From the NCBI GenBank assembly GCA_965197925.1, contig CBDAOC010000020.1, positions 992,001 to 1,056,000 on the forward strand: DNA of 64,000 bases. Direction: 5' to 3'. A model generated the notes under the pieces. The model did no database searches, had not been told where the DNA came from, and was given only the letters and a program-made list of their open reading frames with translations. Origin of the DNA: Nitrososphaerales archaeon (lineage in GTDB: Archaea > Thermoproteota > Nitrososphaeria > Nitrososphaerales > UBA213). The translations under genes and the position numbers were made by a program. Shown one piece after another: positions 23,142 to 57,252 of the stretch. Positions within the stretch are counted from its first letter, which is position 1; each line of letters begins with the position of its first letter.

Positions 23142-23750
23142 TTACTTAATTTTGCCTAGCTTATTAAGAGCTATATCTTTGTTATTCAATGCTTTAGCAT
23201 CATCAGGATCTATAGCCAGAGCTTTATCAAAATACGTAATAGATTCCTCATAACTGCCTAATTGACCAAGAGATGTTCCCTTGTTATACAATGTATAAGC
23301 ATCGTTAGGATCTATATCCAGAGCTTTATCAAAATACGTAATAGCATCCTGAGATCTACCTAAACTATCAAGAGCTATACCTTTGTTATTCAATGCTTTA
23401 GCATCGTTAAGATCTTGTTCAAGAATGCGATCGTATCGTTCTATAGCTTTATCATATTTCTTAGCATAATAGTAAGAGTTCGCTTCCTTTAGAAGATAAT
23501 CTATATCAATAGGCAACTTTTGATTCAATTTCTCAAGTTCTGTTCTCAACCTCTGAATTTCTTTATCACGTTTCTCAAGTTCACTCAGAAATTCCTCAGA
23601 AACGTCTACTTGTTTGTCCGGAGTTATCTGGTTTTCAATTCCTTTTGCCGTCATCATGATTTTTTGATTTTCTATCACTTTGTATATCATCTGTTCTATT
23701 GTGTTAACATGGTTGTCAACACTACTAACACCTTGAGCAACTTCCGTCAC
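23142..23750 (-). CDS. Tetratricopeptide repeat protein (possibly 5'-truncated)
   Basis: 34-aa repeats NNKGIAL..LG...AI.YFDKAL.IDP; 102-nt DNA repeats. Confidence 0.85.
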   Translation of the reverse strand: MTEVAQGVSSVDNHVNTIEQMIYKVIENQKIMMTAKGIENQITPDKQVDVSEEFLSELEKRDKEIQRLRTELEKLNQKLPIDIDYLLKEANSYYYAKKYDKAIERYDRILEQDLNDAKALNNKGIALDSLGRSQDAITYFDKALDIDPNDAYTLYNKGTSLGQLGSYEESITYFDKALAIDPDDAKALNNKDIALNKLGKIK

Positions 23751-26927: not shown

Positions 26928-27314
26928 ATGGTAAAAAGCGATTGGAGGACAGTAAATGTGAAAAAATCTCTACTTGAACAAATTGAAAAAATACTATACA
27001 GTGATGAAGTAAAAAAAGAAGGCATCACAAATATGTCCCAATTTATAGATTCGGCATTAAAGGAAAAAATCGAAGACATAGAACAAAAACGCATGAATCA
27101 TCTCAACATGTATGATGACCACATAAAAATTATGGACAACAATCTTGGCAAAATAGGCAGAATCGTATCTGTATACTTTAAAAAAGGAAATAAGCCGTGG
27201 TGTGATTACTGTGAGGAATCAGATTGCATCCATGTCCAGTACGCATGGGAGATTGCAGACGTGCGAAAGATTCTGGAAAAACATAGATTTAGTCCTCCTC
27301 CGTCAAGGGTATAG
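26928..27314 (+). CDS. RHH regulator with a C-terminal SWIM-like zinc finger
   Basis: WRTVNVKKSLLEQIE...SQFIDSALKEK (RHH); CDYC...CIH. Confidence 0.75.
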   Translation: MVKSDWRTVNVKKSLLEQIEKILYSDEVKKEGITNMSQFIDSALKEKIEDIEQKRMNHLNMYDDHIKIMDNNLGKIGRIVSVYFKKGNKPWCDYCEESDCIHVQYAWEIADVRKILEKHRFSPPPSRV

Positions 27315-30974: not shown

Positions 30975-32066
30975 GAGGCTTGGGCGTAATTTAGTTCGAA
31001 ACGATAAGATCAGGTTTCAATTTTCATTGGTAATGTGTTTAGCTCAGACTCCATTACTTCTTCGTATATTATTTTTGATTGGTGTGATTTGGTCAAAACC
31101 TAATAGGAAAAGGGGTAGACCATTTTATTATTCTCCTACAGTTATGGTAGATGCTTCATCGTTAGAGTATGGATAAGAATACCAAGCAACAATGCTTTGT
31201 ATGAATATTTTTCGATAGACATGCCATACAACAGGAAGGTAATGAAGGCATGTGGTCTTGATAGGTTGCCAGACAGAAGAACATTCGACAGAAGGTCAAG
31301 GCCATATCAATTGACATAAGATCAAGGATAGATGTTATGGGTATGCTCTTCATAAAAGATGGGTTGGTAGACCCAGCCATAATATCCGTTGACAGTTCAT
31401 TGTTGAAAGCAAAGGGACATGTATGGCATAGATCAAACATGAAGAAGAACGAAGTGCCACGCTCCGGTATAGATACAGATGCTCGATGGGGATTCAGCAG
31501 AACCAAGGGATGGGTATTCGGATACAAGATGCATCTAGCATGTAGTACTGGTTCGTTGATAGTTCCATTATCAGCTGATTTCACAACAGCTAACATTACT
31601 GATAACAAGATGTATGAAAGCATAACATCTTCATTGCCTACAGGAATGGTAAGGTATGTTGTAGGAGATGAAGGATATGATGATCACAAGTTATGTGATT
31701 TCAGCAGGTATAGAGGGTATCCAGTATTCCCATTGGAAAGGTACAAGCATACTACAGATAATAATAGACTGGCATTGCTGCGGTTCTATCAATCTGAATT
31801 TAGACAGCATGTATATTCTCGGAGGAGCATAAGCGTTGAACCATTGATAGAGCAGATAAAGGATGTATTTGATATAGACTCATTACCAGTTAGAGGATTT
31901 GATAAAGTAAGGAGCATCGTTCTGATTTCTATATTGCTATACCAGCTGATGGTATACTACAACTACTTGACAGGAAGACCATTAAGGGCATTGAAGCACA
32001 TGTTGGGAAGTTAATCAATCAGAGGCATCAAGTTATTTTTGTTATATGGAATAATGCTCATACCTC
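30975..32066 (+). mobile_element. IS element copy 2 (defective)
   Basis: Near-identical to 9010-10107; 8-bp TSD ATATAATT on both sides. Confidence 0.9.
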
Positions 32067-35394: not shown

Positions 35395-36274
35395 CAACTG
35401 ATCCCAAAACTGATCATTTAGTGAATAATTGACGATCATTTGGATCTATTTGCAATGCTGCCCGTAGCAGATCATGAAATTTCAGGAGATAACAGGTGAA
35501 CAATGGAAGATGATATCACCGCATCTCCCCAAGCCAGCCAGAACCGGAAGGCCAAGGGCAGACGACAGAAAGACAGTCAACGGAATCCTGTTTGTCGGGA
35601 TAACAGGATGCAGGTGGACTGGGATGTCACAAAGGTACGGCTCCAAATCAACTGCGCACCGCAGACTGCAGAACTGGCAGCGACGTGGAATATGGAAGAA
35701 TATCCTCTCCGCTGCAGTCAAATCAGCCCACAGATCAGGCAAGATGCAGCTGCAAAAAACGGTCGATTCGTCATCAATTCCGGCCAAAAAAGGGGAAGCG
35801 TCATAGGATACAACGGATTCAACAGGATTTCAGGCACAAAAATACACGTTGCGGTGGAACAAAACGGACTGCCAGTCTCAGTAGTGATGGGTCCTGCAAA
35901 TCAGCATGACTCTGCAAGATTTGTAGACGTGATGGATGGCATCTCACAATATCTGGATGAGAGATCTATCAGAAAAATTGCGCGGTGCCAAGCAGACAAG
36001 GGCTATGATGCAGAATTCATCAGGAAATACCTCACCAAAAGAAAAATCTCTGACTGCATACCTTACAGAAAAAACAGTAAGACACAACAACAAAATGATG
36101 ATACAGAACAATACCTATACGGCAAGACGCGCTATGTTGTGGAGAGATTCTTTGCCTGGTTGAAGAATGGGTTCCACAGAACCAGGATCAGATATGAGAA
36201 GAATGCACAAAACTATCTGGCATTTGTTATCATTTCGTCGATTATGATGTATTGGAGAGTATTGGGATGACTTT
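35395..36274 (+). mobile_element. IS5-family (IS427 group) element with two ORFs joined by a -1 frameshift
   Basis: Imperfect TIRs; 3-bp TSD AAT; AAAAAAGGGG slip site at AKKG; ADKGYD and RYVVERFFAWL motifs. Confidence 0.85.
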
Positions 36275-38289: not shown

Positions 38290-40090
38290 AATAAATACTA
38301 ATATTCTTGGGGGCAGTTGGAGACAGTTTCAACCGTGAGACATTGATCGGTACCAATCCTTCCATCTAGTTTGCCTTCACCACCAGCTCCTAAAAGTAAA
38401 TCATCACCTTAGTTTCCTTCAAGGTCATCATTACCAGAACCCCCGAAGAGTCGATCGTTACTAACACGTCCAAAAATTTGATGCCATCTTTACCGCCAAA
38501 CAACTCGTCATTATCGAAACCTCCGGATAGCCTATCGGTCCCGATACCTCCAAACAATACATTCTCACCCGGGCCACCAAATATCATATCGTTGCCCTCA
38601 ATGCCATATATCCAACTCATCTCAAAACTAACCATTTAGACAATTTTTAGCGACCATTTAGATCCATGAATAGCGACATCTAAAATTATTTTATGAAATT
38701 CCAAGAATTATCAGACAAACAGTGGAGTATGATGGAATCACACATACCACCACATGCAAAAACTGGCAGGCCTAGGGATGATGATAGAAAAATCATTAAC
38801 GGAATAATCCATGTTCTAACTACTGGATGCCGATGGGACGATATGCCAAAAAGATATGGTGATGATTCTACTGCAAACAGAAGGTTAAACAAATGGCAAC
38901 AAAAAGGAATCTGGAAAAAGATTCTATCACGTACTATTCACTCAGCACATAAATCTGGCAAAATTAATCTACAAAAAATATCAGTTGACTCTTCATCCAT
39001 TCCTGATAAAAAAGGGGCAATGTAACTGGATATAATGGATTCAAGAGAATAACAGGTACAAAAATACATGCCGCAGTAGAGGGTAACGGATTTCCAATAT
39101 CCATACTGTTGAGTCCAGCAAATGAACATGACAGTACAAAATGCATGGATGTTACAGGATCAATTTCAGACTATCTTGATGATGATTCAATACAACAGAT
39201 AGAATCAGTTTATGCAGACAAAATGATGCAAAATACATCAGAATGTATTTGTGGGATAGAAATATTGCATGTTGCATCCCATACAAAATAAATTCCAAGT
39301 TCATCTTGCAAAATAATGATTACAAACATTACAGCAAGACAAGATTTGTAGTTGAGAGATTCCTTGCATGGCTCAAGAATGGATTTCACAGAACAAGAAG
39401 CAGGTATGAAAGAACGGCAGAAAACTACCTGGCATTTGTTAATCTTGCATCATTTTTGATGTATTGTAGGGTTTTGAGATGAGTTGATCGTGTCTCCCTC
39501 CACTACCGTAAATTATATCATTACCAATACCATCTATAATATCATCATCGCCGGGACTACAACAGACATTGTCGTTGCCGACCAAGCCATGTATTACATC
39601 AACTTCAGGAGTTCCCAGTATAACATCATCAACTTCAGTTCCTAGTATGGTACCCGGTAACCTATCACACATTTGTGGTTCGGCCACACATTGGGTATTT
39701 ATGGTGACATCTGTATTTTCTATAAAGGCGTCAGTGTCAAATGTGTTAAAGACCACATCAGATATGGAAGCAGGTGTGTCTGTTACAGGAGAACCAATAT
39801 CTTTAACGTTAGCATTGCTATCTTCTAAAAAGTCTTCACTGCAATCACCTACTTTGCTCTCTGAATCAAGCTTGAGTATCCAGACATCTCTGGAACCCGT
39901 GCCAGATGATTCCGTAAATCCCAACGCCACATATCCTCCATCAAAAGTCTGCTGTATAGAATTTCTACTCGAACTGTCAAAAAGAGGATCGCCATAGGTC
40001 TTGGACCATGTACTCTGTACTGCAGGTTTCCACTAATTGCAATGGCATAGTCGGCAGTAGAACACCAAGTAGCAATATAGCAGTCATGGC
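38290..40090 (-). pseudogene. Hemolysin-type (RTX) Ca-binding protein gene interrupted by an IS
   Basis: GGxGxD nonapeptides on both sides of the IS; frameshifts. Confidence 0.75.
38613..39486 (+). mobile_element. IS5-family (IS427 group) element, defective
   Basis: Perfect 16-bp TIR CAACTCATCTCAAAAC; 3-bp TSD ATC; homologous to 35395-36274. Confidence 0.9.
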
Positions 40091-42427: not shown

Positions 42428-42722
42428 ACCGTCAATTGGAACGTTACACAATTTATTTTTTTATTTTTTTATTAAACCTACAATTAGACTTGGGTTTGAT
42501 GTTTTTTAATCCCTTTCATGGTGTTGGCCGGTCATAGATATTAATTCAATGAAGAAACATTTGAGATATTTTCCTTAAACTGTTTCAATGTTAGTCTCTG
42601 CATGTAAGTAAATTGTAATTAAAAAATAAATAAAAAACATTGTTGGACTGATGAAATTGGAAATGATAATTCCAAAGGTCATCTTCTGGACCTGTTACTT
42701 ATTGTTGTGGTATTAAATAATT

Positions 42723-43806
42723 AAGGCTTGGGCGTAATTTAGTTCGAAACGATAAGATCAGGTTCTAGTTTTTATTGTTGATATGTTTAGCCCAGACTCG
42801 ATACTTCTTCGCATATTATTTTTGATTGGTGTGATTCGGTCAAAACCTAATAGGAAAAGTAGACCATTCTACTATTCTCCTACAGTAATGGTGAGACGCT
42901 TCATCGTTAGAGTATGGGTAAATACCAAGCAACAATGCTTTGCATGAATATTTTTCGATAGATATGCCATACAACAGGAAGGTAATGAGGGCATGTGGTT
43001 TGGATAGGTTGCCAGACAGAAGAACATTCGACAGAAGGTCAAGGCCGTATCAATTGACATAAGATCAAAGATAGGTGCTATGGGTATGCTCTTCATAAAA
43101 GATGGGTTGGTAGACCCAGCCATAGTATCCGTTGATAGTTCATTGTTGAAAGCAAAGGGACATGTATGGCACAAATCTAGCATGAAGAAGAATGAAGTGC
43201 CACGCTCGGGTATAGATACAGATGCTCGATGGGGATTCAGCAGAACCAAGGGATGGATATTCGGATACAAACTGCATCTAGCATGTAGCACAGGTTCGTT
43301 GATAGTTCCATTATCAGCTGATTTCACAACAGCTAACATTACTGATAACAAGATGTATGAAAGCATAACATCTTCATTGCCTACAGGAATGGCAAGGTAT
43401 GTTGTAGGAGATGAAGGATATGATGATCACAAGTTATGTGATTTCAGCAGGTATAGAGGGCATCCAGTATTCCCATTGGAAAGGTACAAGCATACTACAG
43501 ATAATAGACTGGCATTGCTGCAGTTCTATCAATCGGAATTTGGGCAGCATGTATATTCTCGGAGGAGCATAAGCGTTGAGCCATTGATAGAGCATATGAA
43601 GGATGTATTTACCATAGATCCATTGCCAGTTAGAGGATTTGATAAAGCTAGGAGCATCGTTCTGATTTCTATATTGCTATACCAGCTGATGGTATACTAT
43701 AACTACTTGACAGGAAGACCATTAAGGGCATTGAAGCACATGTTGGGAAGTTAATCAATCAGATGCATCAAGTTATTTTTGTTATATGGAATAATGCCCA
43801 TGCCTC
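42723..43806 (+). mobile_element. IS element copy 3 (defective, non-matching flanks)
   Basis: Near-identical to copies 1 and 2; left flank AAATAATT, right flank ACCTAGCT. Confidence 0.9.
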
Positions 43807-44182: not shown

Positions 44183-44535
44183 TCACTTGTCTGAGGGAAT
44201 ATTAGGTTTCGGTTCGTTGAAATCTAAATCATTTAATCTTCCGTCAATGTACATCATCAACTCTCTTGTCTTTATCTCGATTATGCTAGACCACTGATGC
44301 TTTTTATTCTTATAGATAATCCTCATTCCAAGAAGTTTTCCAAGTTCGGTTAACAAAAGTTTTACAGCATTTGGTCTTAATCTAATGTTTCCTTCATTAG
44401 TTTCTGAGAAATCTTTTTTCTTTATCAATCTCCTTAATGCTATTTTGGTTACAGTGATATCAACTAACCATCTGAAGGGTTCCATCAAGTCATAAACCAA
44501 TGATGCCTTATTGTTGTAGTTTTCATATATTCCCT
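44183..44535 (-). pseudogene. cas1: C-terminal fragment of a solo/casposon-type Cas1
   Basis: KASLVYDLMEPFRWLVD Cas1 catalytic-region motif; N-terminal domain absent. Confidence 0.75.
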
Positions 44536-44569: not shown

Positions 44570-46069
44570 TCATACTTCCACATAGAGCACAAAAGTACCC
44601 TTTCCTGAAGCTATGACATGCAATCCTTGATCACCTGTAAGAACTATAGCATTATATTTTTGGGCAATATCTACCAACTGTTCGTCATTGGTTCTTGACT
44701 CATTGACAGATTCTTTCAAATAAGCGAGGCCGATTCTGCCTATTGATGCATCATCAGCAATTCTTTCAAGTTCTGCTTTCCCTCCTTGGTTATCACATTC
44801 TTTGGTTACTTCTGGATGCAAGAGGAAAGTAAAATTTTCAAAGAATGCTCCCTTATCAAGATCTTTAGAAATAGTGTCAGACAATATTACATTACTATCT
44901 GGAAGGAGATGTCCATTGTAGTACAGTAATGTTGTATTTAGATCTCTAATAATCTCATTACAGGATATGCATCTACCTTCCATAAAACCTACAATATTAG
45001 AAGTAACCCTTGCTGATTTTGCTATATTTCCACATGAAGGACACAATATACTTAATGTGGTTACTGACAGTTTACCTTCACGAAACAAGTTTTGCGAATC
45101 AGATGAAATCAGTTCATTTCTGATAGGTGGATCCTGCTTCTCAATTTTACCAGTATTACCATCTAACTCTCTCACGTTAGCGAAGGATTGTTTTACAAAC
45201 CAAGGCCATGGCTTGCCAGTCTTCTTCCATCTTGTCAACCACTTTATTGTCAAAGGGTCTCCGGCATTGCCGCTACCTACTGGACAATCTTCAAATGCAA
45301 CCCTTCTTCCAATGGCCTGAATAATCTTCTCTCTTTCTCCCTTGGCTATTATGCTAGCGAGCTTTGTTTCCAAATATCTGTCATCTGCTTTGCTTTGTAC
45401 GCGGATGGTTGCTCCTCTTTTTTGAAGTGTGTCCAGAAATAACGAAATGTTTCTTCCAACACCATAATCATCTAATACAATGCTACAATTCCCCTCTGGA
45501 ACTCTTCTTAGAAGATGTGAAATCATTCTCTGATAAACTAGATCCATGATCTTGTTAATGTTGAACCTATCAGTATGCCTTGGTAGAATCTTTTCTATGA
45601 TGAAAGATAGTCCTTTCAGTTTTAGATGATCTATTTCTAGATATAATTGATCCCAGTATTGTGCTTCTCTTTTTTTCTTGGTGTCTGTCACACTGATTAA
45701 ATTTTCTATTTCCTCTTTTAGGGATGCAGGAAATGCAACGCCAACTAACACGGAGTGCCCAATAAATTCCCCCTTACCCGTTTCATCTAACCCTATAAGA
45801 AATTCACTTTTTGTTGTTTGAAAACCTGAACCAATTAAATCAGAAATCTTATTCCTTACTGCTAAAACATATTCATCATTAGTAGGATTACTAAAAAGTG
45901 TTCCCGTAGAATACTGGGTAAACACAGCTTTATTGATCCTTATTCTCCAAACTTCTTTTGATGTTTCAGAAATTGACGAATCCTCGATACCACAATTTGT
46001 TATTAGTAATTTTTTAACTTCTTCTAATTTATTATCAGGAATATTCCATTTTCTTGGTTTTGGCTGCAT
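44570..46069 (-). CDS. RNase HII/HIII-like nuclease fused to a Zn ribbon and a PIN domain
   Basis: IGLDETGKGE, DTKK, VLDDY, KADD..LASIIAK, GSGN.GDP; CPSC...CISC; LPDSNVI...ND..LV...VLTGDQGL. Confidence 0.8.
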   Translation of the reverse strand: MQPKPRKWNIPDNKLEEVKKLLITNCGIEDSSISETSKEVWRIRINKAVFTQYSTGTLFSNPTNDEYVLAVRNKISDLIGSGFQTTKSEFLIGLDETGKGEFIGHSVLVGVAFPASLKEEIENLISVTDTKKKREAQYWDQLYLEIDHLKLKGLSFIIEKILPRHTDRFNINKIMDLVYQRMISHLLRRVPEGNCSIVLDDYGVGRNISLFLDTLQKRGATIRVQSKADDRYLETKLASIIAKGEREKIIQAIGRRVAFEDCPVGSGNAGDPLTIKWLTRWKKTGKPWPWFVKQSFANVRELDGNTGKIEKQDPPIRNELISSDSQNLFREGKLSVTTLSILCPSCGNIAKSARVTSNIVGFMEGRCISCNEIIRDLNTTLLYYNGHLLPDSNVILSDTISKDLDKGAFFENFTFLLHPEVTKECDNQGGKAELERIADDASIGRIGLAYLKESVNESRTNDEQLVDIAQKYNAIVLTGDQGLHVIASGKGTFVLYVEV

Positions 46070-46491: not shown

Positions 46492-47362
46492 ATGACGAAT
46501 GAGGTCAATGTAAGTAGAATCGAAGAAATTTTAAATGTTAAAGCAGAAGTCTTCTCAGAAGAGGGCGTTGTCAAGGCAAGCTTCCCGCGTACAGACGTAA
46601 AGGTGACTATTGATAACTGGCCCATGAAACCTTTTATGGGTCTTGCTTCATGGGCTGCCTTTCAGAAAGGTGTGAAAGAAGGTATTGAAGTTATGGTCAT
46701 GAGTGACCTAGTGCTCTTTGAAGATAAAGTGAATTCTGTTATGAGTGCAGCTCTGGAAACTTTGCAAGTGACCGCTTTACACAACCATTTCTTCTTTGAC
46801 AATCCTAAAGTGTATTTCATGCACATTAGTGGTGAAAGTGAGCTCGATGCTTTTGCTTCAGGTATTAGAAAGGCCCCTGGATACTGTTAATGCAATCAGG
46901 ACAACTAACACCCAGCCACAAACATCATTCAAAGGACAACAGATCCCTATTGATAATGATATTGATGGCACAACTATTGAAACAATCCTCAGTGTTGGAG
47001 GTACGGCTAAAGATGGAATGTTCAAGGTTGTTATTGGACGCAAGACAAGTGCTTCATGTGGTTGTCTGGTGGGCAAAAATATGGGAGTAAATACTTGGGC
47101 CGCTTTTGCAGGTAACAATGACAACGCATTTGTAGATGGTGATTTTGCAGTCTTGGAAGGTGAACTGCAACCAGTACTCAAAGCTCTAAGAGCAGTTAGT
47201 ATTAACATAGTTGCGATTCATAATCATATGACTTTTGAGCAGCCACGCATTATCTTTCTACATTACTGGGGCAAGGGCAAAGCAACTGATTTAGCTAAAG
47301 GTTTGAAGAGTGCTTTGGACAAAACTCACGATCCTGATCTATTAACAATGAAGTCTCTATGA
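46492..47362 (+). pseudogene. Tandem DUF1259 (LppY/LpqO-like) protein with a +1 frameshift near 46875
   Basis: WAAF, ALHNH...YFMH and AIHNH...FLHYWG motifs; extra C in GCCCC. Confidence 0.8.
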
Positions 47363-47474: not shown

Positions 47475-49133
47475 CTATCGGACAAGTGGTGTAACAGAAC
47501 CCTTTACACTCATATCGGTATCCATACCAATAACCTCCCAGTCAACAACTGGCTTCGCCGAATCTACTTTGAGTAAGAAGTACTGCTTGTCATCAGGCTG
47601 TAAAGGATGTTTGGAACCTGAAAATGTCACGGTGTTAAGGTCTCCCTCCTTCTCCCATTTATTGAATGCCTTGGCTGCCTTGATTGAATCTCCAATAGTC
47701 AAGGTAAAAGCATCAATACTTACAGCGCTATCGCCTACATTTGTCAATCTTACGATTATTAGATCTTTGATTTGTTTGGCGTGCACTCTCACTTTTAATG
47801 GATCTGGCACCAATTTATTGGCGAGAATCTCGCTGGCCAAGCTCCGCCCTGCCTCCTGTCCTTCTTGATTGCTGAATTCGAAGTGGATGCCAGCAAAGAT
47901 TCTGGCTCGTCCGGCTTCCTGAGCGGCATCGGAGAAGCTCTCAAAGGTTCGCGGACCGGCAATCGCATCATCTGCCTCGAAGGTAAAGCTCATGTCGTCC
48001 CAGCCAAAGAAGCCAGCAAGGATGGTCGAGCCAGCCCCAGCTAAGACGCTCTGTCCGGCGACGTGTTCTGGTGAGCCACCCTTGCTACCATTACGCGGCT
48101 CCCAGTTCGGGTCCTTCTCAGTATCCGGATTACCATCAGTGTCGGCGTTGCGGATAGCCGTCTGCGGCCGCCAGAAGAAGTAGACAAGCTTGTCATCTGA
48201 ATAAACCCTCACCGAATCGGCCATGGCCATGCCCAACAACGCGAAGAGTCGTGCGCTTTCCGACAAGGAGAGGTCCTGTTGGTCCGCAACTAGGATGGCG
48301 ATCTTGATCCACTCGCCTGGTGATCTGGAGCTACCTGAGCCACCCTTCCAGAACCGAAAGATCTCTTCCTTTTCCTGGTCCGGTATTGCTAGGTTACCCA
48401 GTTCCTTCACTTCGTTGAATGCATTAGTATACTCCTCGCTATCCAATGGCGGTGGACCCGCACTTCGGTAAATGAGTGGGTCAGCTATAGCGAACGGTCG
48501 CATGTTAGCATTATGTGCCGAGGTGAAATCGCTTTGGAATTCACCTGCCTCGGAGCGTGCTGATTCTACCATTTTCGGCGATGTTCCATCGTCGGCCCGC
48601 AGTTCCACGACTTGCTGTCCGACATTTGCGCCCCATGATAGGCCGGCCTCCACATCATCCTTGTCATCATCACCAATGGCATCCAGGTCAGCAGCCATCT
48701 GCGCGTCGTAGATGTCCTCGCGGTCGGCCTGCTCAGCAGAGAGCACTACGTGAGCAGCGGCTATCGCCGCAGCGCGCCGATCAGCTTCGTTTGGTGCGTC
48801 ATCTGGGCTGACGAGGGCAAAGTCAAGTGTGGAGCTGCCATCAGCCCTAGCTATACCGTTGATCGCGTCATACATAGCAATGTTGACCTTGGCATAAAGA
48901 CGGGCAGCCGTCGAGGAGCCGAGCTCCTTTTCACGCACGGTGTCCAAGGCTAATTCGTTCCACGTTATGATTACGTTCTCCGGCTGCATCTCGGCGAATG
49001 CTTTTGAATTACTCACAATCTGTTCATAGTCTACCTGCCTTGACAATGATGACAAGCCCAGCGTACCTACGAGGAGAATAGCTGCAATTGAACCAACTGC
49101 AATTAGCTTCCAGTTATTGTAATTATACATCAT
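47475..49133 (-). CDS. Vanadium-dependent haloperoxidase-like protein (PAP2 superfamily)
   Basis: AMYDAIN, K....FWRP.TAIR, PEHVAGQS and RIFAGIHF motifs; core visibly GC-rich. Confidence 0.8.
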   Translation of the reverse strand: MMYNYNNWKLIAVGSIAAILLVGTLGLSSLSRQVDYEQIVSNSKAFAEMQPENVIITWNELALDTVREKELGSSTAARLYAKVNIAMYDAINGIARADGSSTLDFALVSPDDAPNEADRRAAAIAAAHVVLSAEQADREDIYDAQMAADLDAIGDDDKDDVEAGLSWGANVGQQVVELRADDGTSPKMVESARSEAGEFQSDFTSAHNANMRPFAIADPLIYRSAGPPPLDSEEYTNAFNEVKELGNLAIPDQEKEEIFRFWKGGSGSSRSPGEWIKIAILVADQQDLSLSESARLFALLGMAMADSVRVYSDDKLVYFFWRPQTAIRNADTDGNPDTEKDPNWEPRNGSKGGSPEHVAGQSVLAGAGSTILAGFFGWDDMSFTFEADDAIAGPRTFESFSDAAQEAGRARIFAGIHFEFSNQEGQEAGRSLASEILANKLVPDPLKVRVHAKQIKDLIIVRLTNVGDSAVSIDAFTLTIGDSIKAAKAFNKWEKEGDLNTVTFSGSKHPLQPDDKQYFLLKVDSAKPVVDWEVIGMDTDMSVKGSVTPLVR

Positions 49134-49258
49134 ATCATCTCTTCTGGGATGTTGTACTAAAGGATTTCTAAACTTCCTTATGCATCTTCCACCTGTTAAT
49201 CCAAAGTAGATTTTCTTTCCTTACAAATTATAAATAACTGTGGCTTACGTAATTAGTT

Positions 49259-50282
49259 GAGGCTTGGGCGTAATTTAGTTCGAAACGATAAGATCAGGTT
49301 CTAGTTTTTATTGTTGATATGTTTAGCTCAGACTCGATACTCCTTCGTATATTATTTTTGATTGACGTGATTCTAGTCAAAACCTAATAGGAAAAGAGGT
49401 AGACCATTCTACTATTCTCCTACAGTTATGGTAGATGCTTCATCGTTAGAGTATGGGTAAGAATACCAAGCAACAATGCTTTGCATGACCAGACAGAAGG
49501 ACGTTTGATAGAAGGTTCAAGGCCATATCAATTGACATAAGATCAAGGATAGATGTTATGGGCGTGCTCTTCATAAAAGATGGGTTGGTAGACCCAGCCA
49601 TAGTATCCGTTGACAGTTCATTGTTGAAAGCAAAGGGACATGTATGGCACAAATCAAACATGAAGAAGAATGAAGTGCCACGCTCGGGTATAGATACAGA
49701 TGCTCGATGGGGATTCAGCAGAACCAAGGGATGGGTATTCGGATACAAGATGCATCTAGCATGTAGTACAGGCTCATTAATAATACCATTGTCTGCCGAC
49801 CTAACTACAGCAAATATTTCTGATAATAACATGTATGAGAGTATAACAGCATCATTATCAGAAGATGTTAGATACATTGTGGGAGATGAAGGATATGATG
49901 ATCATGAGTTATGTGATTTCAGCAGGTATAGAGGGCATCTACTAGTATTCCCATTGGAAAGGTATAGGCATACTACAGATAATAATAGACTGGCATTGCT
50001 GCAGTTCTATCAATCGGAATTTGGACAGCATGTATATTTGCAAAGAAGCATAAGCATTGAACCTTTGATAGAGCAGATAAGGACGTATTTGCTATAGATC
50101 CATTACCAGTTAGAGGATTCAATAAGGTAAGGAGTATTGTATTGTTATCTGTATTATTGTATCAGGTAATAGTATTACAATCATCTAGCAGGAAGGCCAT
50201 TAAGGGCATTGAAGCACATGCTTGGAAATTAATCAATCAGATACATCAAGTTATTTTTGTTATTGAATTATGGCCATACTTC
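49259..50282 (+). mobile_element. IS element copy 4 (more diverged, internal deletion)
   Basis: Same ends; flanks AATTAGTT / ATTTAATT; lacks the frameshift shared by copies 1-3. Confidence 0.85.
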
Positions 50283-50398: not shown

Positions 50399-52066
50399 TC
50401 AGCCCTTGCTCCCCCATGTTGGTGCTTCCACCATCACAGCGGCTCTGTGATAGCCTGTGGAGCCGCTTGGAAATGGCTTTCGTAGTTCAGCTGTCTGGAC
50501 TTTTCCAGTCTTGTCAGTTGCTCTAACAACAATCTCGTATCTGCCTTCTGCTACCGGATCCCAGTCAATAGCCCAAAGAACCCACGAATTGTTTGAAAGA
50601 GGATCTTTTAATCTGGCTGTTTCCCAACTCCCTCCACCATCCGTGCTAACCTCGACCCCCGATATTCCCCTAGCACCAGCGAAAGCTATACCTGCTATTT
50701 GCACTTTACCTCCATGAACAACTCTTGAGGATAGTTCACCGAATATGTTTGTGAGCGCTTGTCCAGGAAGAACTATTGTAGAATGAGTCTGATATTCAGC
50801 GTTGTTATCCCAATCTCTTCTTTGCCAGTAGCCTTCATAGACCTTGTCAACCAGCTCTATCTCTGTTATCCATTTTGCATTCATCATTCCGTAGAGTCCA
50901 GGGACAATCGCCCTTAGCGGAAAACCATGACTTGCCGACAGAGTAACACCATTCATTTCATACGCCAATATGGTTCCTTCCAAAATACCTAGTTCAAGAG
51001 GAATTCCTACATCATAACCATCATAACACCTGAAGACAATGTAGATTGCTTCAGATCTAACATCAGCCTTCTCGAGTATGCTTTTCATAGGAACGCCTTT
51101 CCATAGGGCTGTACTGATCAAATCCCCCCCTTTCTTGTTGCTAATGCATTCTAAAGTAGCATATTCTTCTACCGCAGGGATCAACTTCAACTCTTCATAC
51201 GTGAGTTCAAAGGGATTGTTTACCAGCCCATTTACCTTTAGCTTCCAAGTATCCGTATCAACTTTGGGAGTTACGACGCTAATATCTACCTGATAGAATC
51301 GATTATTGGGGGTTACTTCTGCAGCAACAAATGAAGCAAGACTAGGTTCTGCAAATATACCTGCAATATCGGAAGGATATTTTGTGGGCTCTGTAACTCC
51401 TTGATCTAATGATTTTGTTTGGTTTGTAGTTACATTTGATGGATCTGTAGGTTTAGAGAATAAAGAGTTTAGTCCAAAAAAAATTACCAGTGATGCAATC
51501 GAGCCCGTAACTGCGGTACGAAGGAACCACCTCTTCTTAATGTCAATGCTCCTCTCCTGAGGAGAGCTCTTTTGCTCGATAAGCTCTGGTCTAGCAACAT
51601 ATCTTTGGAACATCTCGTATAAAATGAAACCAAAGGCAATGTGAGGTGGAATGAGATACAAAGATATGAGTTGAATTGGTATGGGCTGGGATAGAATCTC
51701 TGTTACTTCCAAGAGGATTAATGCTAATACGAACAGAATAAAATAAGATAAGAGCACAAGTTGTAAAACATTAAAAAGGTATACCTTTTGAGCTAGTTTC
51801 CTGTACGGTCTATGCAGTAAGACCCCAAGAACGCCGTACAGAAAAAGATTGATAGCAATCGCCCCAGCAAATGCTGAGTATTTAGCTAAAGATCCAAATG
51901 TCTCTACGGCTTGAGACTCAATTGCTCCTGGAGTTAGAGAGAATAGTGTCTGCGCTGCAAGCTCAGGAATGAATAATCCACCAGCGAAGATTCTCAGAAA
52001 AAAAGAGAGTGCAAGAGCTACGCCACCTCCAGCAAGTCCGATAGTAAAACACTTTGTTGTCTCCAT
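50399..52066 (-). CDS. Membrane-bound sulfite oxidase family molybdoenzyme
   Basis: N-terminal TMs; Tat-like KKRWFLR; TLECISN, HGFPLR, PGLYGMMNAKW; C-terminal dimerisation domain. Confidence 0.9.
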   Translation of the reverse strand: METTKCFTIGLAGGGVALALSFFLRIFAGGLFIPELAAQTLFSLTPGAIESQAVETFGSLAKYSAFAGAIAINLFLYGVLGVLLHRPYRKLAQKVYLFNVLQLVLLSYFILFVLALILLEVTEILSQPIPIQLISLYLIPPHIAFGFILYEMFQRYVARPELIEQKSSPQERSIDIKKRWFLRTAVTGSIASLVIFFGLNSLFSKPTDPSNVTTNQTKSLDQGVTEPTKYPSDIAGIFAEPSLASFVAAEVTPNNRFYQVDISVVTPKVDTDTWKLKVNGLVNNPFELTYEELKLIPAVEEYATLECISNKKGGDLISTALWKGVPMKSILEKADVRSEAIYIVFRCYDGYDVGIPLELGILEGTILAYEMNGVTLSASHGFPLRAIVPGLYGMMNAKWITEIELVDKVYEGYWQRRDWDNNAEYQTHSTIVLPGQALTNIFGELSSRVVHGGKVQIAGIAFAGARGISGVEVSTDGGGSWETARLKDPLSNNSWVLWAIDWDPVAEGRYEIVVRATDKTGKVQTAELRKPFPSGSTGYHRAAVMVEAPTWGSKG

Positions 52067-52488
52067 TATTTTTCCACATCATAACAAGTTCGATCTAACG
52101 GCGTTACCATTTTTCTGATCATTAGATTACATCTTCCATTGAATAGGGTATTGTTACTTTATAAATTGCTTTATCCAAATCCTTCGTATCTAACTCTCGA
52201 ATTTTTTTGTTCACGATATGAATAATTTTTTAATAATATTAGCTTGTGCTTGTGTACTTGACAGCTTTTCAGGAACAAGTAAGCTATAAGATCTTAGTAA
52301 GGTCTTAGTACAGTCTAAGAAAAGCAAAGTACACCTTCTTTCATTTCATTTTTGCTGACACATGATGAAAGTCTTATTCCAGCAAGAACAAGGATTACTA
52401 TGTAGCTGCTTCCGCCTCCGAAACCCACGCTAGAGTAAACGAAGCTTATCCCAAAGAATGGGGATATGTACAAATATGATTTCACTAA

Positions 52489-53415
52489 CTAATGCCCGTG
52501 CCCTTTCAGCATTTTGTAGATATGCAGTATTCCTGGAAAGAGGGCATCCAGTGATTCGGAAACCGCCTTTACACTTCCTGGCAGGTTCACTATAACGGTA
52601 TTTCCCCTGACTCCTGCCACCCCTCTTGATAGCATTGATAACGGTGTCCTTCTTTGACCGTGTGCCCTTAGGACTTCAGCTACACCCTTTACATCCTTTT
52701 CCAGTACTTTCGTTGTCGCCTCCGGAGTTACGTCGCGGGGACCTACCCCTGTCCCCCCACTTGTTAACACAAGATCAACATTGAGCTCGTCACAGAATCT
52801 CTTGAGGTTAGATTCTATATGATTCGCATCGTCAGATATGATTTTATGCTCCACAACATTGAATCCGTTCTTAGTAAGCTTTTCAACTGCAAGCTTTCCA
52901 GATTCATCACTTCTCTCATATCTGGATGTGGAATCACTTATCACAAGAACCGCTACCCTGAGGTTTCTGTCATATTTTTCGTAGAATCCTTTCATACCAC
53001 CATGCTTTTCCTGCAGTTTAACTGATTCTATGGTTAAGGTATCGTCGATAGGCTTCAGCATATCGTATATCGTCAGGGCGGCTATGCAAGCAGCCGTCAG
53101 GGATTCCATCTCCACGCCAGTTTTCCAAACAGTTTTCACATTCACTTTGACTTCGATGGTCTCTTCGTTCAGTGAAACATCGACCTTGACATGATCAATC
53201 GGTATAGGATGACAGTACGGTATTAACTCCCAAGTTCGCTTAGCAGCCATTGTTGCAGCCAGTCTTGCCGCATCAATTATGTTACCCTTGGGTGATTTTC
53301 CTTCGTTTAAAAGGCGAATAGTCTCTGGACTGACTCTTACTATGGCATTCGCAACCGCCTGCCTTTGTGTATCTGGCTTATCACCAACATCGAACATGCC
53401 CAAATTACTCACCAT
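52489..53415 (-). CDS. moaCB: Bifunctional MoaC-MoaB/MogA
   Basis: LIPYCHP and TGVEME (MoaC); TSGGTG..PRDVTPEA and NLPGS (MoaB/MogA). Confidence 0.92.
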   Translation of the reverse strand: MVSNLGMFDVGDKPDTQRQAVANAIVRVSPETIRLLNEGKSPKGNIIDAARLAATMAAKRTWELIPYCHPIPIDHVKVDVSLNEETIEVKVNVKTVWKTGVEMESLTAACIAALTIYDMLKPIDDTLTIESVKLQEKHGGMKGFYEKYDRNLRVAVLVISDSTSRYERSDESGKLAVEKLTKNGFNVVEHKIISDDANHIESNLKRFCDELNVDLVLTSGGTGVGPRDVTPEATTKVLEKDVKGVAEVLRAHGQRRTPLSMLSRGVAGVRGNTVIVNLPGSVKAVSESLDALFPGILHIYKMLKGHGH

Positions 53416-53827
53416 TTATGGGGACACCTTTTACCCAAAACTCGCCAAGATCAGATTTCTCTTTTTTCCATATTGGTACTATTTTCTTGATCGTGTCGAT
53501 TGCATACTTGCAGGCCTCAAAAGCTTCTTTGCGATGTTCTGAACACACAGCAGTTATCACACTTATTTCTCCAACCTTCAATTCACCTACCCTATGAATA
53601 GCAACAAACTTTCTTACACTCCATTTATCAATCACCTCACACTCGATTTTTCTGAGCATTTCTTTTGCCATTTCTTTGTATGCTTCATAATAAATTCCTG
53701 AAACTTTAGTGTTATCATTGTGATCCCTGACAGTTCCCAGGAAAAAAACAGTTGCGCCAGAGGATTCATCCTTGACATACTCCAATACTTTGGAGACATC
53801 AATTTGGTCCTCAACTATGGCAAACAT
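53405..53827 (-). CDS. moaE: Molybdopterin synthase catalytic subunit
   Basis: GATVFFLGTVR, HRVG, HRKEAF and PIWKKE motifs. Confidence 0.92.
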   Translation of the reverse strand: MFAIVEDQIDVSKVLEYVKDESSGATVFFLGTVRDHNDNTKVSGIYYEAYKEMAKEMLRKIECEVIDKWSVRKFVAIHRVGELKVGEISVITAVCSEHRKEAFEACKYAIDTIKKIVPIWKKEKSDLGEFWVKGVPINGE

Positions 53828-53828
53828 T

Positions 53829-54098
53829 TCATCCGCCCCCTACGGGTGGCAGAAGCGCTGCCTCATCTATATGGCTTAGTATTGTGCTGTCATCTGCGAT
53901 TCTATGGTTCAACGCAACCATGATTGGAATTCTTATTGATGAAAGTGCAGGATAAAGCTCTACGATCTTCTTTCTGAGGTCCCCAACCGTCCCGTTATGT
54001 TGAAGTCTTAATCTTATCTCCTCTTTGCCAATAATCTCTCTTACCGAAGCAAACAACTTCACATTAACACTCAGCGGCTCAAGATTTCCCTTGCTCAT
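53829..54098 (-). CDS. moaD: Molybdopterin synthase sulfur carrier
   Basis: VKLFASVRE...PPVGGG C-terminus. Confidence 0.92.
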   Translation of the reverse strand: MSKGNLEPLSVNVKLFASVREIIGKEEIRLRLQHNGTVGDLRKKIVELYPALSSIRIPIMVALNHRIADDSTILSHIDEAALLPPVGGG

Positions 54099-54104
54099 AA
54101 TTAC

Positions 54105-55097
54105 TTATCCTCCTATTGTATGCATTAGGTTTAGGGTTGGCTTGAGTGCCTTGGTTCTTATGATGCTTATTATACCTTCAGGCTTCTTGTTTATACATTC
54201 AAGAATATATTCTCTGATCTCATAGTCAGTCTTCCCACTTCTTAGTAACTTCTTGATGTTATATCCTGGATTTTCAAAAAGGCAAGTGAGAAATCTGCCG
54301 TCAGAAGTTATCCTTACTCTGTCACAGTAAGTACAGAACGGTTCAGTCATAGAGGGGATGAATCCTATAGTGCCATGTCCGTCAGCAAATGAGTAAAGTG
54401 TTGCTGGCTCAGAACTTTCATTTTTCAAGGGTAAAAGTGGTGTCAAATTCTTGCCTATGATTTCCATCATTTTCCTCTTACTAACTACAAGATCCGGTCT
54501 CCAGATACCTGACCCATCTAATGGCATAAACTCGATGAATCGAACAGTGTGACCCGTCTCTCTTGCAAATTCTGCGAATGTTACAACCTCATCATCGTTC
54601 CAACCTCTAATAATTACAGTATTTATCTTAAGTTTCAGACCAACATCATCTGCTGCCTCAATTCCATCTAAGACTCTGTTAAGCCCATCTAAGCCATTAA
54701 TTGCCTTGAATTTTTCAGTTCTGAAAGTATCGAGACTAACATTTACACTTTGAAGCCCAGCATCTTTAAGCTCTTTGACTTTATCATGTAGCAAAATACC
54801 GTTAGTTGTCATACTAATGGTCTTAATTCCTTTTAACTTTGACAATTCACCAATAAAGTCTTCTATGCCCTGCCTGATCAGTGGTTCACCACCTGTAACT
54901 CTTATCTTTTCAACCCCTAGGCTTACTAGAATGGTAGTGAACCTAACAAGTTCCTCATATGTCAATATCTCACTTGCTGAAAACCATTTTGTATGTTCTG
55001 GCATACAGTAAATACAACGCATATTGCATCTGTCTGTAACAGAGATCCTAAGCTTTCTTGCAACCCTGCCGAAATTATCAACCAGACTTTCTTCCAA
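54105..55097 (-). CDS. moaA: GTP 3',8-cyclase
   Basis: CNMRCIYC, TGGEP, CTYCDRVR...CL and terminal IGG. Confidence 0.95.
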   Translation of the reverse strand: MEESLVDNFGRVARKLRISVTDRCNMRCIYCMPEHTKWFSASEILTYEELVRFTTILVSLGVEKIRVTGGEPLIRQGIEDFIGELSKLKGIKTISMTTNGILLHDKVKELKDAGLQSVNVSLDTFRTEKFKAINGLDGLNRVLDGIEAADDVGLKLKINTVIIRGWNDDEVVTFAEFARETGHTVRFIEFMPLDGSGIWRPDLVVSKRKMMEIIGKNLTPLLPLKNESSEPATLYSFADGHGTIGFIPSMTEPFCTYCDRVRITSDGRFLTCLFENPGYNIKKLLRSGKTDYEIREYILECINKKPEGIISIIRTKALKPTLNLMHTIGG

Positions 55098-55129
55098 TTT
55101 AGCTAGCCAACTCCTCTCACTCTAGTCGC

Positions 55130-55775
55130 CTACATTCTAATTTGATTTAACTGCTGGCAGAAATGGTCTCTCCATTCCTCGGGCAACGCCTCTAGTTTTG
55201 AAGCACGCCGCATAGCTTCAATGTCTTCTTTATCATGTACATATAACCTTACTATATCTTTAACAGTGATGTTATTCTTGTCACGACTGATAAGTTCGAT
55301 TGGATCCACAGCACCAACTTCTCCTTCCTTCAATACCCTAAAGTAAAATCCAGGTCTACCACTTACCAGAAACTTTCTAATAATGTCTGTTCGTCCGAAC
55401 CTTACACCAAGCTTATAGCATGGCATTCGTGGTTGTGTCATCATTACTCTGGCTGACCCAATTTGAAATTGATCACCGATATTGAACATATCTTCAAGAA
55501 TCCCTTCCGTAGTCAAATTTTCACCAAACATACTCCATGGCAGAACAGTATCGGGTAATTGGACTTTCCAGTAGTCATAATGCTCCACTGGATATGCATA
55601 AACTGCCTTATCTGGCCCACCATGTACAGTCAAATCAGCCTGTCTGTCACCATCTAGGTTGAGCTTACGTAGTTTGACATGACCCTTGATTAGTTCTTTG
55701 AAAATTCCAGTCACAACCTCCTTTCCCTGAAAGAGCACCTCACGTGGAAGCCCTACGTTGACTAAGAATTTTCAT
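55130..55775 (-). pseudogene. MOSC domain (YiiM-like) protein with a frameshift at codon 5-6
   Basis: HGGPDKAV, GENLT, QPRMPCYKL; ATG at 55775 is out of frame by an apparent 2-nt loss (expected MKILSVNVGLPREV); GTG at 55738 could restart. Confidence 0.75.
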
Positions 55776-55980
55776 TTTAGATTGATCCGCCAATGCTCTA
55801 TAAATATCAGTGAATACTCATTCATATATGTTTTCTATTCAGTTAATAGACTCCCCAAAAAAAAAGAAGGTGGTAATATTTAGAAACAAATCAAAGAAAT
55901 ACAGCTCTTTTTAGATTGATTCACAAATTATCGCGTATATTTGTATTAGAAGTAACTTTATTTGGTTCACAAAACTAAGT

Positions 55981-57252
55981 ATGATTATGGAACAACATGA
56001 TACAACAAGGCATCATGGATTCAAGTCTTATATCCCTGTGGATGTTGCTCTTGGCAAGTTCTTGTCTTACATGGATATCTCCAAATTATTATCCTTTACA
56101 GAGAATGTTGACCTTGGAGATGCTTTAGGTAGAGTCTTAGCAGATGATCTTCTAAGTGATATTGATGTCCCACCATTTGTCAAGGCAGCTATGGACGGCT
56201 ATGCCGTGTTATCTAAAGATACAAAAGGTGCATCAAGTAAGCATCCAATTCTTCTTGATGTGATTGATAGCATATCGGCAGGGCAAGAAGTACGATCCAG
56301 TGTTATATCTGGAAAGGCTGTAGCCGTTGCTACAGGAGGTATGATTCCAGATGGAGGGGATGCTGTGGTGATAGTGGAGAATACCGAATTAGTGGGTAAC
56401 AAAGTTAAGATCATGGAAGAGGCAGAGCAAGGCAAAAATTTGGCATTAAAAGGCGAGGAAGTGAGCAAGGGTCAACTTCTACTTGAGAAGGGCACCTGGC
56501 TTGATGCTCAAGATTTAGGACTTGTAGCTTCTGTTGGTGTTGACAAGGTTCCAGTCCTCAGGAAGCCAAAGGTTGCAGTAATTGCCACCGGTAGTGAACT
56601 TATTGAACCGGGATCGAAGCCTGGTCCGGGACAAATTTTTGAGAGTAATAGGCATGTGATTTCGGGTATGGTGAAGGAGTTCGGGGGGGAAGTTGTGGAC
56701 TTGGGTATTTGTAGAGATGAATGGGATTTAATATCATCTAAGTTAAGGGACGCACTTGCGTTCGACGTTGTAGTTGTAAGCGGTGGATCCTCTGTTGGTG
56801 AAAAAGACTTAATCCCTAATATCATAGGCAAAATGGGAAAGCCCGGATTGCTGGTTCATGGTGTAGCTATGAAACCCGGCTCTCCTACGGCCCTTGGAAT
56901 ACTCGATAACAAACCCATCATTGTCACGCCGGGTTTTCCTGTATCTTCATATTTTGCGTTCTACGCCTTTGGACGTCCTCTCCTCTTTCATATGTTAAAA
57001 ACTAAAGGACCCCCAACACCAACAGTAAATGCGAGGATGTTAGCTGGTATTGATACACATGAGGGAATGCGTACTTTTGTAAGGGTCAAGATATCAAGAA
57101 ATGATAATTGTTATTTTGCTAATCCCATTAGTGCAACAGGCGCCAGAGTTCTTTCAACACTAACGAATTCTGATGGCATAGTTATAGTGGATGATTTGAA
57201 GAGATTGCAGAAGAACGAAGAAGTTAATGTGATACTCCTAAGGAGTCTATAA
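55981..57252 (+). CDS. moeA: Molybdopterin molybdenumtransferase
   Basis: AAMDGYA, ATGSEL, SGGSSVG and MKPG motifs. Confidence 0.93.
   Translation: MIMEQHDTTRHHGFKSYIPVDVALGKFLSYMDISKLLSFTENVDLGDALGRVLADDLLSDIDVPPFVKAAMDGYAVLSKDTKGASSKHPILLDVIDSISAGQEVRSSVISGKAVAVATGGMIPDGGDAVVIVENTELVGNKVKIMEEAEQGKNLALKGEEVSKGQLLLEKGTWLDAQDLGLVASVGVDKVPVLRKPKVAVIATGSELIEPGSKPGPGQIFESNRHVISGMVKEFGGEVVDLGICRDEWDLISSKLRDALAFDVVVVSGGSSVGEKDLIPNIIGKMGKPGLLVHGVAMKPGSPTALGILDNKPIIVTPGFPVSSYFAFYAFGRPLLFHMLKTKGPPTPTVNARMLAGIDTHEGMRTFVRVKISRNDNCYFANPISATGARVLSTLTNSDGIVIVDDLKRLQKNEEVNVILLRSL

Follow-up and report, generated by a model that had tools for sequence, protein, structure and literature searches.

A candidate accessory defence nuclease joining an RNase HIII-type module, a zinc ribbon and a PIN domain in a Nitrososphaerales archaeon

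The window analysed here is a stretch of 64,000 nucleotides from contig CBDAOC010000020.1 of a Nitrososphaerales archaeon, and the subject of the analysis is one gene within it, a candidate defence nuclease in which an RNase HIII-like module is joined to a zinc ribbon and a PIN domain. The listing of open reading frames (ORFs) and the translation give a single uninterrupted ORF of 499 amino acids (aa) at 44570-46069 on the minus strand. An initial annotation had described an intact four-part protein marked by a series of short motifs, and all of these were found in place: WRIRINKAVFTQYSTGTLF at residues 41-59 of the N-terminal segment; the RNase H motifs GLDETGKGE (93-101), DTKK (129-132), LDDY (199-202) and KADD (227-230); the zinc-ribbon motifs CPSC (343-346) and CISC (367-370); and the PIN motifs PDSN (390-393), KECD (423-426), NDEQ (461-464) and TGDQ (478-481). 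An AlphaFold2 (AF2) model of the full protein was built on 32 homologues, and its confidence is given below as the predicted local distance difference test (pLDDT) and the predicted template modelling score (pTM). The parts of the gene, including an N-terminal domain resembling the TATA-binding protein (TBP-like), are as follows.

44570..46069, minus strand: whole ORF (P0001), RNase HIII-like module with zinc ribbon and PIN domain (AF2 pLDDT 90.7, pTM 0.87)
45815..46069, minus strand: residues 1-85, TBP-like N-terminal domain of RNase HIII type, beta-alpha-beta3-alpha (VIA to 4py5_A and 3asm)
45158..45802, minus strand: residues 90-304, type 2 RNase H catalytic core with D95, E96, D200 and D229 (PF01351, 1eke_B)
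45050..45157, minus strand: residues 305-340, conserved linker with PPIR and a helix at 323-330 (conservation, secondary structure of the model)
44954..45049, minus strand: residues 341-372, four-cysteine zinc ribbon with C343, C346, C367 and C370 (conservation, beta-hairpins)
44573..44926, minus strand: residues 382-499, PIN domain with D391, E424, D462 and D480 (VIA, Foldseek)

The G+C content of the gene (36.3%) lies near that of the window (38.6%), so that composition gives no mark of recent arrival. The sequence before the ATG shows no clear promoter.

The Pfam family RNase_HII (PF01351) matched residues 92-299 with an E-value of 3.9e-17 (63.3 bits against a gathering cut-off of 25.8), and D95, E96, D200 and D229 are all present, in agreement with the earlier description of an RNase HII/HIII core that retains its acidic residues. 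Both NCBIfam equivalog models scored below their curated cut-offs, these being TIGR00729 for archaeal RNase HII (84.7 bits versus 123.3) and TIGR00716 for RNase HIII (rnhC; residues 33-252, 49.3 bits versus 161.2). The best sequence match in PDB was the RNase H3 of Thermovibrio ammonificans, 4py5_A (phmmer, residues 39-263, E 8.5e-13), for which the alignment begins inside the N-terminal domain, at residue 39. No Pfam family, the RNase HIII N-domain model included, matched residues 1-79. Structural comparison with VIA aligned residues 6-298 of the model with the whole 4py5_A chain (0-266; Z 17.9, 262 of 267 residues) and residues 4-305 with the Bst RNase HIII 3asm, which identifies the first 85 residues as the TBP-like, duplex-binding domain of RNase HIII, as had been proposed from the letters alone. 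The catalytic core, with residues 89-307 aligned, matched archaeal RNase HII 1eke_B with Z 21.9 and a root-mean-square deviation (rmsd) of 2.9 over 209 residues.

The module thus combines features of two known enzymes. RNase HIII is defined by a DEDE active site and by the absence of the junction tyrosine of RNase HII. The window family resembles RNase HIII (rnhC; 4py5 and the Bst structures 2d0a and 3asm) in placing a TBP-like N-domain before a type 2 RNase H core, in having GKG in place of GRG, in lacking the junction tyrosine and, in part of the family, in the use of E as the fourth acidic residue (NSED), where the window protein has D (KADD). Unlike RNase HIII, the window protein scores far below the rnhC cut-off (49.3 versus 161.2 bits), has a core nearer to archaeal RNase HII (Z 21.9; GSGxxxDPxT C-terminal helices), adds 195 residues of linker, zinc ribbon and PIN domain, and is accessory and horizontally spread. 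The archaeal RNases HII (1eke, 1io2, 1i39) are the best structural matches of the core (Z 20-22) and share its DEDD tetrad and DxK motif, whereas the window family has GSGN for GSGY and GKG for GRG, falls below the TIGR00729 cut-off, carries added TBP-like N-terminal and PIN C-terminal domains, and is found here in a host with a canonical copy of its own.

Pfam gave nothing above threshold on residues 306-499, no PIN family among its models matching and Mut7-C (E 0.027) coming nearest, and in NCBIfam the PIN portion of PRK13764 was matched weakly (E 0.044). The fold was recovered at the structural level: the C-terminal 194 residues modelled alone (pLDDT 94.5) gave a PIN domain in both VIA and Foldseek comparisons, as the initial annotation had held. 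The best VIA match was 3i8o_A (Z 13.0, rmsd 2.2 over 114 residues), with 5f4h_A, the PIN domain of the archaeal PINA helicase, at Z 11.4 and 3ix7_B at Z 11.2, and lesser matches included SMG6/EST1A, Nmd4, Utp24, Nob1, Rrp44 and many VapC toxins. In the list of 50 VIA rows, PIN or PIN-like nucleases fill the first 28 places and most of the remainder, universal stress proteins and a few unrelated folds appearing from rank 29, and among the Foldseek matches listed at E <= 1e-3 (11 of 12) all 11 were PIN domains. The CPSC/CISC zinc ribbon, also proposed earlier, is borne out by four cysteines that are present and conserved; the model places beta-hairpins at 352-357 and 363-367, and Zn_ribbon_3 matched weakly (E 0.064).

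The nearest structural relatives of the PIN domain are of the PilT-N, PIN-TRAM and PINA type (3i8o, 3ix7, 5f4h; Z 11-13, rmsd 2.1-2.8 over 111-114 residues), and the four acidic residues of the window PIN stand at the expected places. It differs from them in being preceded by a zinc ribbon and fused to an RNase H, whereas the relatives are themselves fused to TRAM or ATPase domains, 3i8o and 3ix7 being PIN-TRAM proteins. The rRNA-processing endonuclease Nob1 also combines a PIN domain with a zinc ribbon and is a structural match (2lcq, Z 7.5), but this match is much weaker than those of the PilT-N type, the ribbon of Nob1 is inserted in or after the PIN domain where that of the window protein precedes it, and Nob1 is a universal housekeeping protein in archaea while the window gene is sporadic. 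A phmmer search with the ribbon-PIN portion against 1.84 billion representatives found only 53 clusters at 50% identity. Each either has the same architecture or is short (53-334 aa; possibly a fragment or split gene), and no other N-terminal partner occurs among these 53 matches; a search for longer fused forms (875-2495 aa) gave none at E <= 1e-10, which is weak evidence of their absence.

These structural affinities bear on the main non-immune alternative, in which the protein would be an accessory enzyme of nucleic-acid metabolism whose RNase H part removes primer or R-loop RNA and whose PIN domain trims flaps or single-stranded RNA, much as RNase H2 acts with FEN1, in host repair or in the replication of an integrated mobile element. 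The PIN classification counts flap endonucleases and T4 RNase H among PIN-like nucleases (PMC5499597), but the PIN domain is nearest to the PilT-N, PIN-TRAM and PINA type, and no FEN or 5'-nuclease chain occurs among the matches listed.

Conservation was assessed over 32 full-length homologues that share 42-88% identity with the window protein, and over a motif table of 55 rows. In the RNase H part D95, E96 and D200 never vary, and D229 is kept in at least 90% of the homologues, with E in some; in the linker K311, P315 and G332 are invariant. The ribbon keeps C343, C367 and C370 throughout and C346 in at least 90% of the homologues, and the PIN domain likewise keeps D391, E424 and D480 throughout and D462 in at least 90%. 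Both catalytic residue sets are conserved, and therefore both active sites are under selection, so that the RNase H part is probably an enzyme rather than merely a sensor. Apparent catalytic competence at both sites is equally what the nucleic-acid-metabolism alternative would expect.

Six canonical RNases HII from the host and related genomes served for comparison. The window family has DETGKGE where these have DEAGRGS at the first acidic pair, DTK against DSK at the DxK motif, DDY against D[AS]C at the third acidic residue, and GSGN against GSGY at the junction motif, GSGN being present in nearly all family members. The GSGY tyrosine reads the RNA-DNA junction in RNase HII, as seen in RNase H2 structures. 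Its replacement by asparagine predicts cutting of RNA stretches in the manner of RNases HI and HIII, not incision at single ribonucleotides; recognition of single ribonucleotides, which the initial annotation had allowed for, is on these motifs unlikely.

The gene has been regarded as accessory, and its genomic setting bears this out. A canonical RNase HII is encoded on the same contig (G000:C20:694781-695368, a 214-aa frame, 131.7 bits), so that a separate rnhB is present, and an RNase HI lies on another contig, an assignment made less certain by an estimated assembly contamination of 5.4%. A search with the protein in 30 relatives (8 of the same family and 22 of the same order) turned up no full form; what matched there over residues 90-304 was canonical RNase HII, with an additional weak match to residues 36-252 in one genome (G021, E 1.3e-9) that is RNase HIII-like. 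Across 400 genomes sampled from the phylum the full form was likewise absent, and four genomes of a single family (1.6-2.0 Mb) carried a form of 331-347 aa lacking both ribbon and PIN domain (E 1.7e-23 to 1.2e-86); a fifth match at the E-value cut-off (G099) was of canonical RNase HII type. The gene is accordingly not the sole, vertically inherited RNase H2 of its lineage. That it is nonetheless an ordinary housekeeping RNase HII/HIII with a decorative C-terminal extension is very improbable: the Pfam RNase_HII threshold is passed and metagenome pipelines label the homologues 'ribonuclease HII', but the host has its canonical enzyme elsewhere on the same contig, relatives lack the full form, both curated equivalog cut-offs are missed and the junction tyrosine has become asparagine. 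For the host genome the housekeeping reading is effectively refuted.

Beyond the phylum sample, the same architecture recurs across both domains of life. The protein database gave 336 clusters at E <= 0.001, of which most of the 120 listed were near 500 aa, and a homologue 88% identical to the window protein was found on a separate 2.4-Mb contig. In the ESM Atlas the corresponding cluster, named 'Ribonuclease (Fragment) family protein', has 240 members, half of them bacterial. A scan of one genome per prokaryotic species recovered 56 loci, with full-length copies at 39-49% identity in both Archaea and Bacteria. Archaeal hosts of the full-length form were Nitrosopumilus, Undinarchaeota, Archaeoglobus/Geoglobus, Thermococci, Thermoplasmatales and Methanomassiliicoccales. 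Bacterial hosts were Chloroflexota, Acidobacteriota, Nitrospirae, Gammaproteobacteria, Latescibacterota, Aquificaceae, Thermotogae, Bacillota, WOR-3, Rhodothermus, Planctomycetia, Dictyoglomaceae, Deltaproteobacteria and Goldiibacteriota, and assignment to bacteria is backed by the neighbouring genes DnaB (L039), SelB (L029) and GGDEF (L058). The only copy from a cultured isolate, that of Thermodesulfatator autotrophicus S606 (L066:115-1628), adjoins GmrSD and a serine recombinase and is frameshifted near residue 130. There does not appear to be a virus-borne copy: 76 pattern matches among IMG/VR viral contigs included none that tblastn confirmed.

For the RNase H part (55 rows), a maximum-likelihood tree from a quick search, with two long branches flagged and only its broad picture taken, separated the window family from canonical RNase HII with a Shimodaira-Hasegawa-like approximate likelihood ratio test (SH-aLRT) support of 97. 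Bacterial PIN-less forms from WOR-3, Lithacetigenota/Coprothermobacterota and Dictyoglomota occupied long basal branches, and 24 of 25 full forms fell together in a single crown group (support 91), where internal branches are short and Archaea and Bacteria are mixed; nested within it were the PIN-less forms of Acidobacteriota and Nitrosopumilaceae, plus two others. The window protein grouped with copies from Undinarchaeota and Nitrosopumilaceae (support 96). No remnants of the ribbon and PIN domain were found by tblastn beside the PIN-less forms. Three Dictyoglomota loci (L067-L069) have 420-aa ORFs in which the RNase HIII-like part is followed by about 110 residues without a full PIN domain; the extra residues match the ribbon region weakly (tblastn, E 8e-5 to 5e-3), and on sequence these ORFs represent an intermediate form.

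The genes surrounding the homologues were compared in two ways. Clustering of up to six ORFs on each side at 53 loci, all against all, gave no conserved partner gene common to more than five loci. A Pfam scan of three ORFs on each side covered 28 full-length loci (136 ORFs) and 20 PIN-less loci (115 ORFs), and defence-type neighbours were found at 17 of the 28 full-length loci and at none of the 20 PIN-less ones (Fisher p = 6e-6; with kin collapsed, 16/27 versus 0/10, p = 0.0017), values that are indicative only, since kin are not independent and the neighbour categories were set by the analyst. This is the scoring of neighbourhoods for defence genes that the initial annotation had put forward as a check. 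The neighbours comprised type I hsd genes (L020, L029, L034, L040, L041, L058); a DUF1156 methylase or DUF499 ATPase (L025, L026, L030, the first two near-duplicates), termed related to bacteriophage exclusion (BREX) systems here following PMC12839542; GmrSD (L022, L066); large N6/N4 methylases, AlwI, Mrr_N, HNH, SNF2 or HerA (L023, L024, L029, L047); Cas6 (L032) and Cas3-Cas4-Cas1 (L041); an M78 peptidase with DUF4411 (L036, L047); and an MNT nucleotidyltransferase beside an AbiEii-like ATPase (L037). Of the other loci, L039 had only a serine recombinase and L021 an ambiguous archaeal ATPase. The synteny of the PIN-less relatives, on the other hand, is conserved by lineage and of housekeeping character, with SecA, succinyl-CoA ligase, ribosomal S15, penicillin-binding proteins, TGT and endonuclease V.

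In several cases the association with defence genes reaches the level of the operon. At L020, L025, L029, L040, L041 and L058 the ORF start lies between an 11-nt overlap and a gap of 0 from the stop of an upstream hsdS, hsdM or DUF1156 gene. At L034 the gene stands between hsdM with a Schlafen-type gene and hsdS-hsdR, at L041 between hsdRMS and cas3-cas4-cas1, and in Archaeoglobi (L025:37-3619, L030:1893-6037) between the DUF1156 methylase and the DUF499 ATPase; this last cluster also holds conserved 156-aa and 96-aa ORFs of no known family. The operational marks of a defence-island gene, namely recurrent defence neighbours, a patchy distribution and horizontal transfer, are all found, the last in the crown clade of mixed domains.

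For the nucleic-acid-metabolism alternative, these neighbourhoods offer serine recombinases flanking L039 and L066, ordinary metabolic neighbours at 9 of the 28 loci, and PIN-less relatives that behave as housekeeping RNase HIII-like genes; but an operon-level place in type I restriction-modification (R-M) and BREX-related loci is unexpected of a replication enzyme, no IMG/VR relative was confirmed, and the host already has RNases HI and HII. This main non-immune alternative is weakened because the PIN domain is of PilT-N type, no virus-borne copy was found and the gene is embedded in R-M operons, and it is considered unlikely.

Less probable again is a selfish, toxin-like module, a self-targeting RNase that would stabilise islands or R-M cassettes by post-segregational killing with no specific antiviral role. 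PIN is the commonest toxin fold, VapC chains are among the structural matches (Z 5.5-7.2), the distribution is patchy and horizontal, and pairs resembling toxin-antitoxin modules adjoin the gene at three loci (the M78 peptidase with DUF4411 at L036 and L047, and the MNT nucleotidyltransferase at L037). However, no antitoxin-sized neighbour is conserved across the 53 loci, VapC-type PIN domains are more distant than those of the PilT-N and PIN-TRAM type, and a simple toxin leaves the large conserved RNase HIII module and the rigid linker unexplained.

In the window itself the gene lies in a 5.5-kb segment bounded by two insertion sequence (IS) copies, with a fragment of cas1 beside it, both of which the initial annotation had reported and both of which were found.

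42714..43785, plus strand: IS copy A, with a DDE_Tnp_1 transposase ORF at 43080-43754 (Pfam, repeat comparison)
44183..44500, minus strand: C-terminal fragment of Cas1, 105 aa (Pfam Cas_Cas1, profile positions 229-281 of 283, E 4.3e-8)
49250..50263, plus strand: IS copy B, with a shorter transposase ORF at 49558-50097 (direct repeat of copy A)

The two IS copies, which carry DDE_Tnp_1, are direct repeats about 90% alike (76-95% by block). The Cas1 fragment lies on the gene's strand, 70 nt beyond the gene's stop codon, its similarity to Cas1 starting only near 44510, and PADLOC Cas1 models match it too; a casposon origin was set aside, as the fragment matches ordinary Cas1 models of the clustered regularly interspaced short palindromic repeat (CRISPR) systems. 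Six Cas1 matches occur in the host genome (L076-L081), two of them intact frames (434 and 399 aa) and four, the window fragment included, fragments of which three have in-frame stops, suggesting repeated decay of CRISPR adaptation modules in this genome. No CRISPR array was found in the window, the only close direct repeat in the array search being three tandem copies of a 102-nt unit at 23153-23458 (100, 78 and 68% identity). Applied to 20 neighbours in the window, PADLOC returned the Cas1 fragment, a generic methyltransferase match to mad2 and no other system; a PDC-S02 match on a 128-aa ORF at 26928-27311 was weak (E 5.6e-4).

The IS-bounded segment also contains a 126-aa ORF without a family, a doubtful 93-aa ORF, and two plus-strand DUF1259 (PF07485) ORFs at 46492-46890 and 46796-47362 that overlap in different frames with one domain each and are probably a single two-domain gene broken by a frameshift. 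A 552-aa ORF at 47475-49133 (minus strand) looks compositionally foreign (G+C 51.8% versus 38.6% for the window) and has a weak DUF6851 match (E 4.8e-4) as its sole family hit. Further IS pieces lie at 31337-32014, 35503-36270 and 38693-39025, making at least five IS4/IS5-type transposase pieces within 20 kb, in an IS-rich variable region that ends at an intact molybdenum-cofactor gene cluster (50399-57252). RTX/hemolysin-type calcium-binding repeats, together with a bacterial Ig-like domain, are encoded between 39439 and 42435 by several short ORFs lying on both strands, which look like the pieces of a large repeat-protein gene in this archaeal genome.

There are precedents for RNase effectors of comparable design and position. 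As described in PMC3710099, the HEPN RNases RnlA and LsoA of RNase LS are fused to an RNase H or to a TBP-like domain of RNase HIII type and were proposed to target hybrid RNA, that is, phage RNA:DNA duplexes. The window family shares with them the fusion of an RNase effector to a hybrid-binding domain, but the effector is HEPN there and PIN here, the sequence relation holds only at the level of domain class, and RnlA has a dedicated antitoxin, RnlB, while the window family has no conserved partner. The second precedent is one of gene position. PIN, HEPN and Schlafen RNases are treated as 'backup effectors' inside BREX and DUF499/DUF1156 loci in PMC12839542, with PMC3710099 also describing such R-M- and BREX-embedded RNases. 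Family members here are found within type I hsd operons or at their ends (L029, L034, L040, L041, L058), a placing that recalls PrrC and RloC, or between DUF1156 and DUF499 genes (L025, L030). PrrC, unlike the window protein, is an ABC-ATPase with HEPN, and many copies of the family, that of the window included, are not beside R-M genes; the likeness to R-M-controlled RNases is one of gene position.

Because family members recur in type I R-M, BREX-related and CRISPR loci and bring no partner gene with them, the most likely role, in keeping with these precedents, is that of a stand-alone or backup effector beside DNA-targeting immunity. The reading favoured, with somewhat better than even confidence, is of an accessory, horizontally spread nuclease with two active sites in a single polypeptide, whose target would be RNA:DNA hybrids and which would serve defence either alone or as a backup effector. 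The earlier view of a mobile single-gene defence nuclease is supported in that the gene is accessory, mobile and associated with defence islands, the defence function being drawn from context. A possible mechanism is that the RNase HIII-type part would dock on the hybrids abundant from invading DNA, such as replication primers, R-loops and origin transcripts, and would bind and cut RNA stretches within them, and the PIN domain, by family precedent presumably a metal-dependent endoribonuclease, would cut the adjoining single-stranded RNA. Alternatively, docking on the hybrid could switch the PIN domain on against bulk RNA. Either route would block replication or expression of the invader, or arrest the cell.

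Several observations weigh against an immune function. None of the 5027 models of PADLOC-DB v2.0.0 matched the protein at E <= 1, and a toxic RNase without an antitoxin needs a mechanism of self-control, of which none was identified. Nine of the 28 full-length loci have neither defence nor mobile neighbours (glycosyltransferases, ABC transporters, GatB and Thi4 stand there instead), and the dead cas1 fragment is the sole defence neighbour in the window, with no CRISPR array. In the Aquificaceae copy (L034, 9956-11473) DTTGKGE and AYTK replace DETGKGE and ADTK in a full-length ORF that keeps the PIN domain, so the RNase H site seems to have been lost there and hybrid cleavage may not always be needed. 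Four loci have no single full ORF: three are frameshifted (L038, L042, L066), and at L047 the copy is in one frame with a match ending at residue 448 (ORF 319 aa). Most loci come from metagenome-assembled genomes, in which binning errors could inflate the host range, and the contig labelled 'bacterium' at L020 has an archaeal-type RNA polymerase Rpb5 gene. ORFs were called greedily (longest first, at least 80 aa), which makes the start coupling approximate, and the two Pfam scans used E-values of 1e-5 and 1e-8, although all counted matches pass 1e-8 except AAA_21 at L037, which leaves the count unaffected.

A stronger version of the hybrid-directed defence effector, put forward tentatively and with less confidence than the reading above, is that the protein is a single-chain sensor-effector in which a hybrid-sensing RNase HIII module positions or licenses the PIN domain, serving Bacteria and Archaea as a fail-safe when type I R-M, BREX-related and CRISPR systems are evaded; it would be the first immune type 2 RNase H. 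No description of an RNase HII/HIII-PIN fusion was found in the literature searched, including the accessible parts of the PIN (PMC5499597) and RNase H (PMC3985635) classifications, whose supplements may list the architecture. The two active sites are separable by mutation, which makes the prediction directly testable, and the PIN-less sisters provide a natural control; as a hybrid-directed RNase the protein could have practical interest too. Textbooks treat RNases H as housekeeping enzymes that serve replication and genome stability, and if the defence reading is true, RNA:DNA hybrids would join the molecular patterns read by prokaryotic immunity. The family would then supply a compact candidate system encoded by one gene and found in Archaea and Bacteria alike, with the ammonia-oxidising archaea, whose antiviral repertoire is poorly known, among its hosts.

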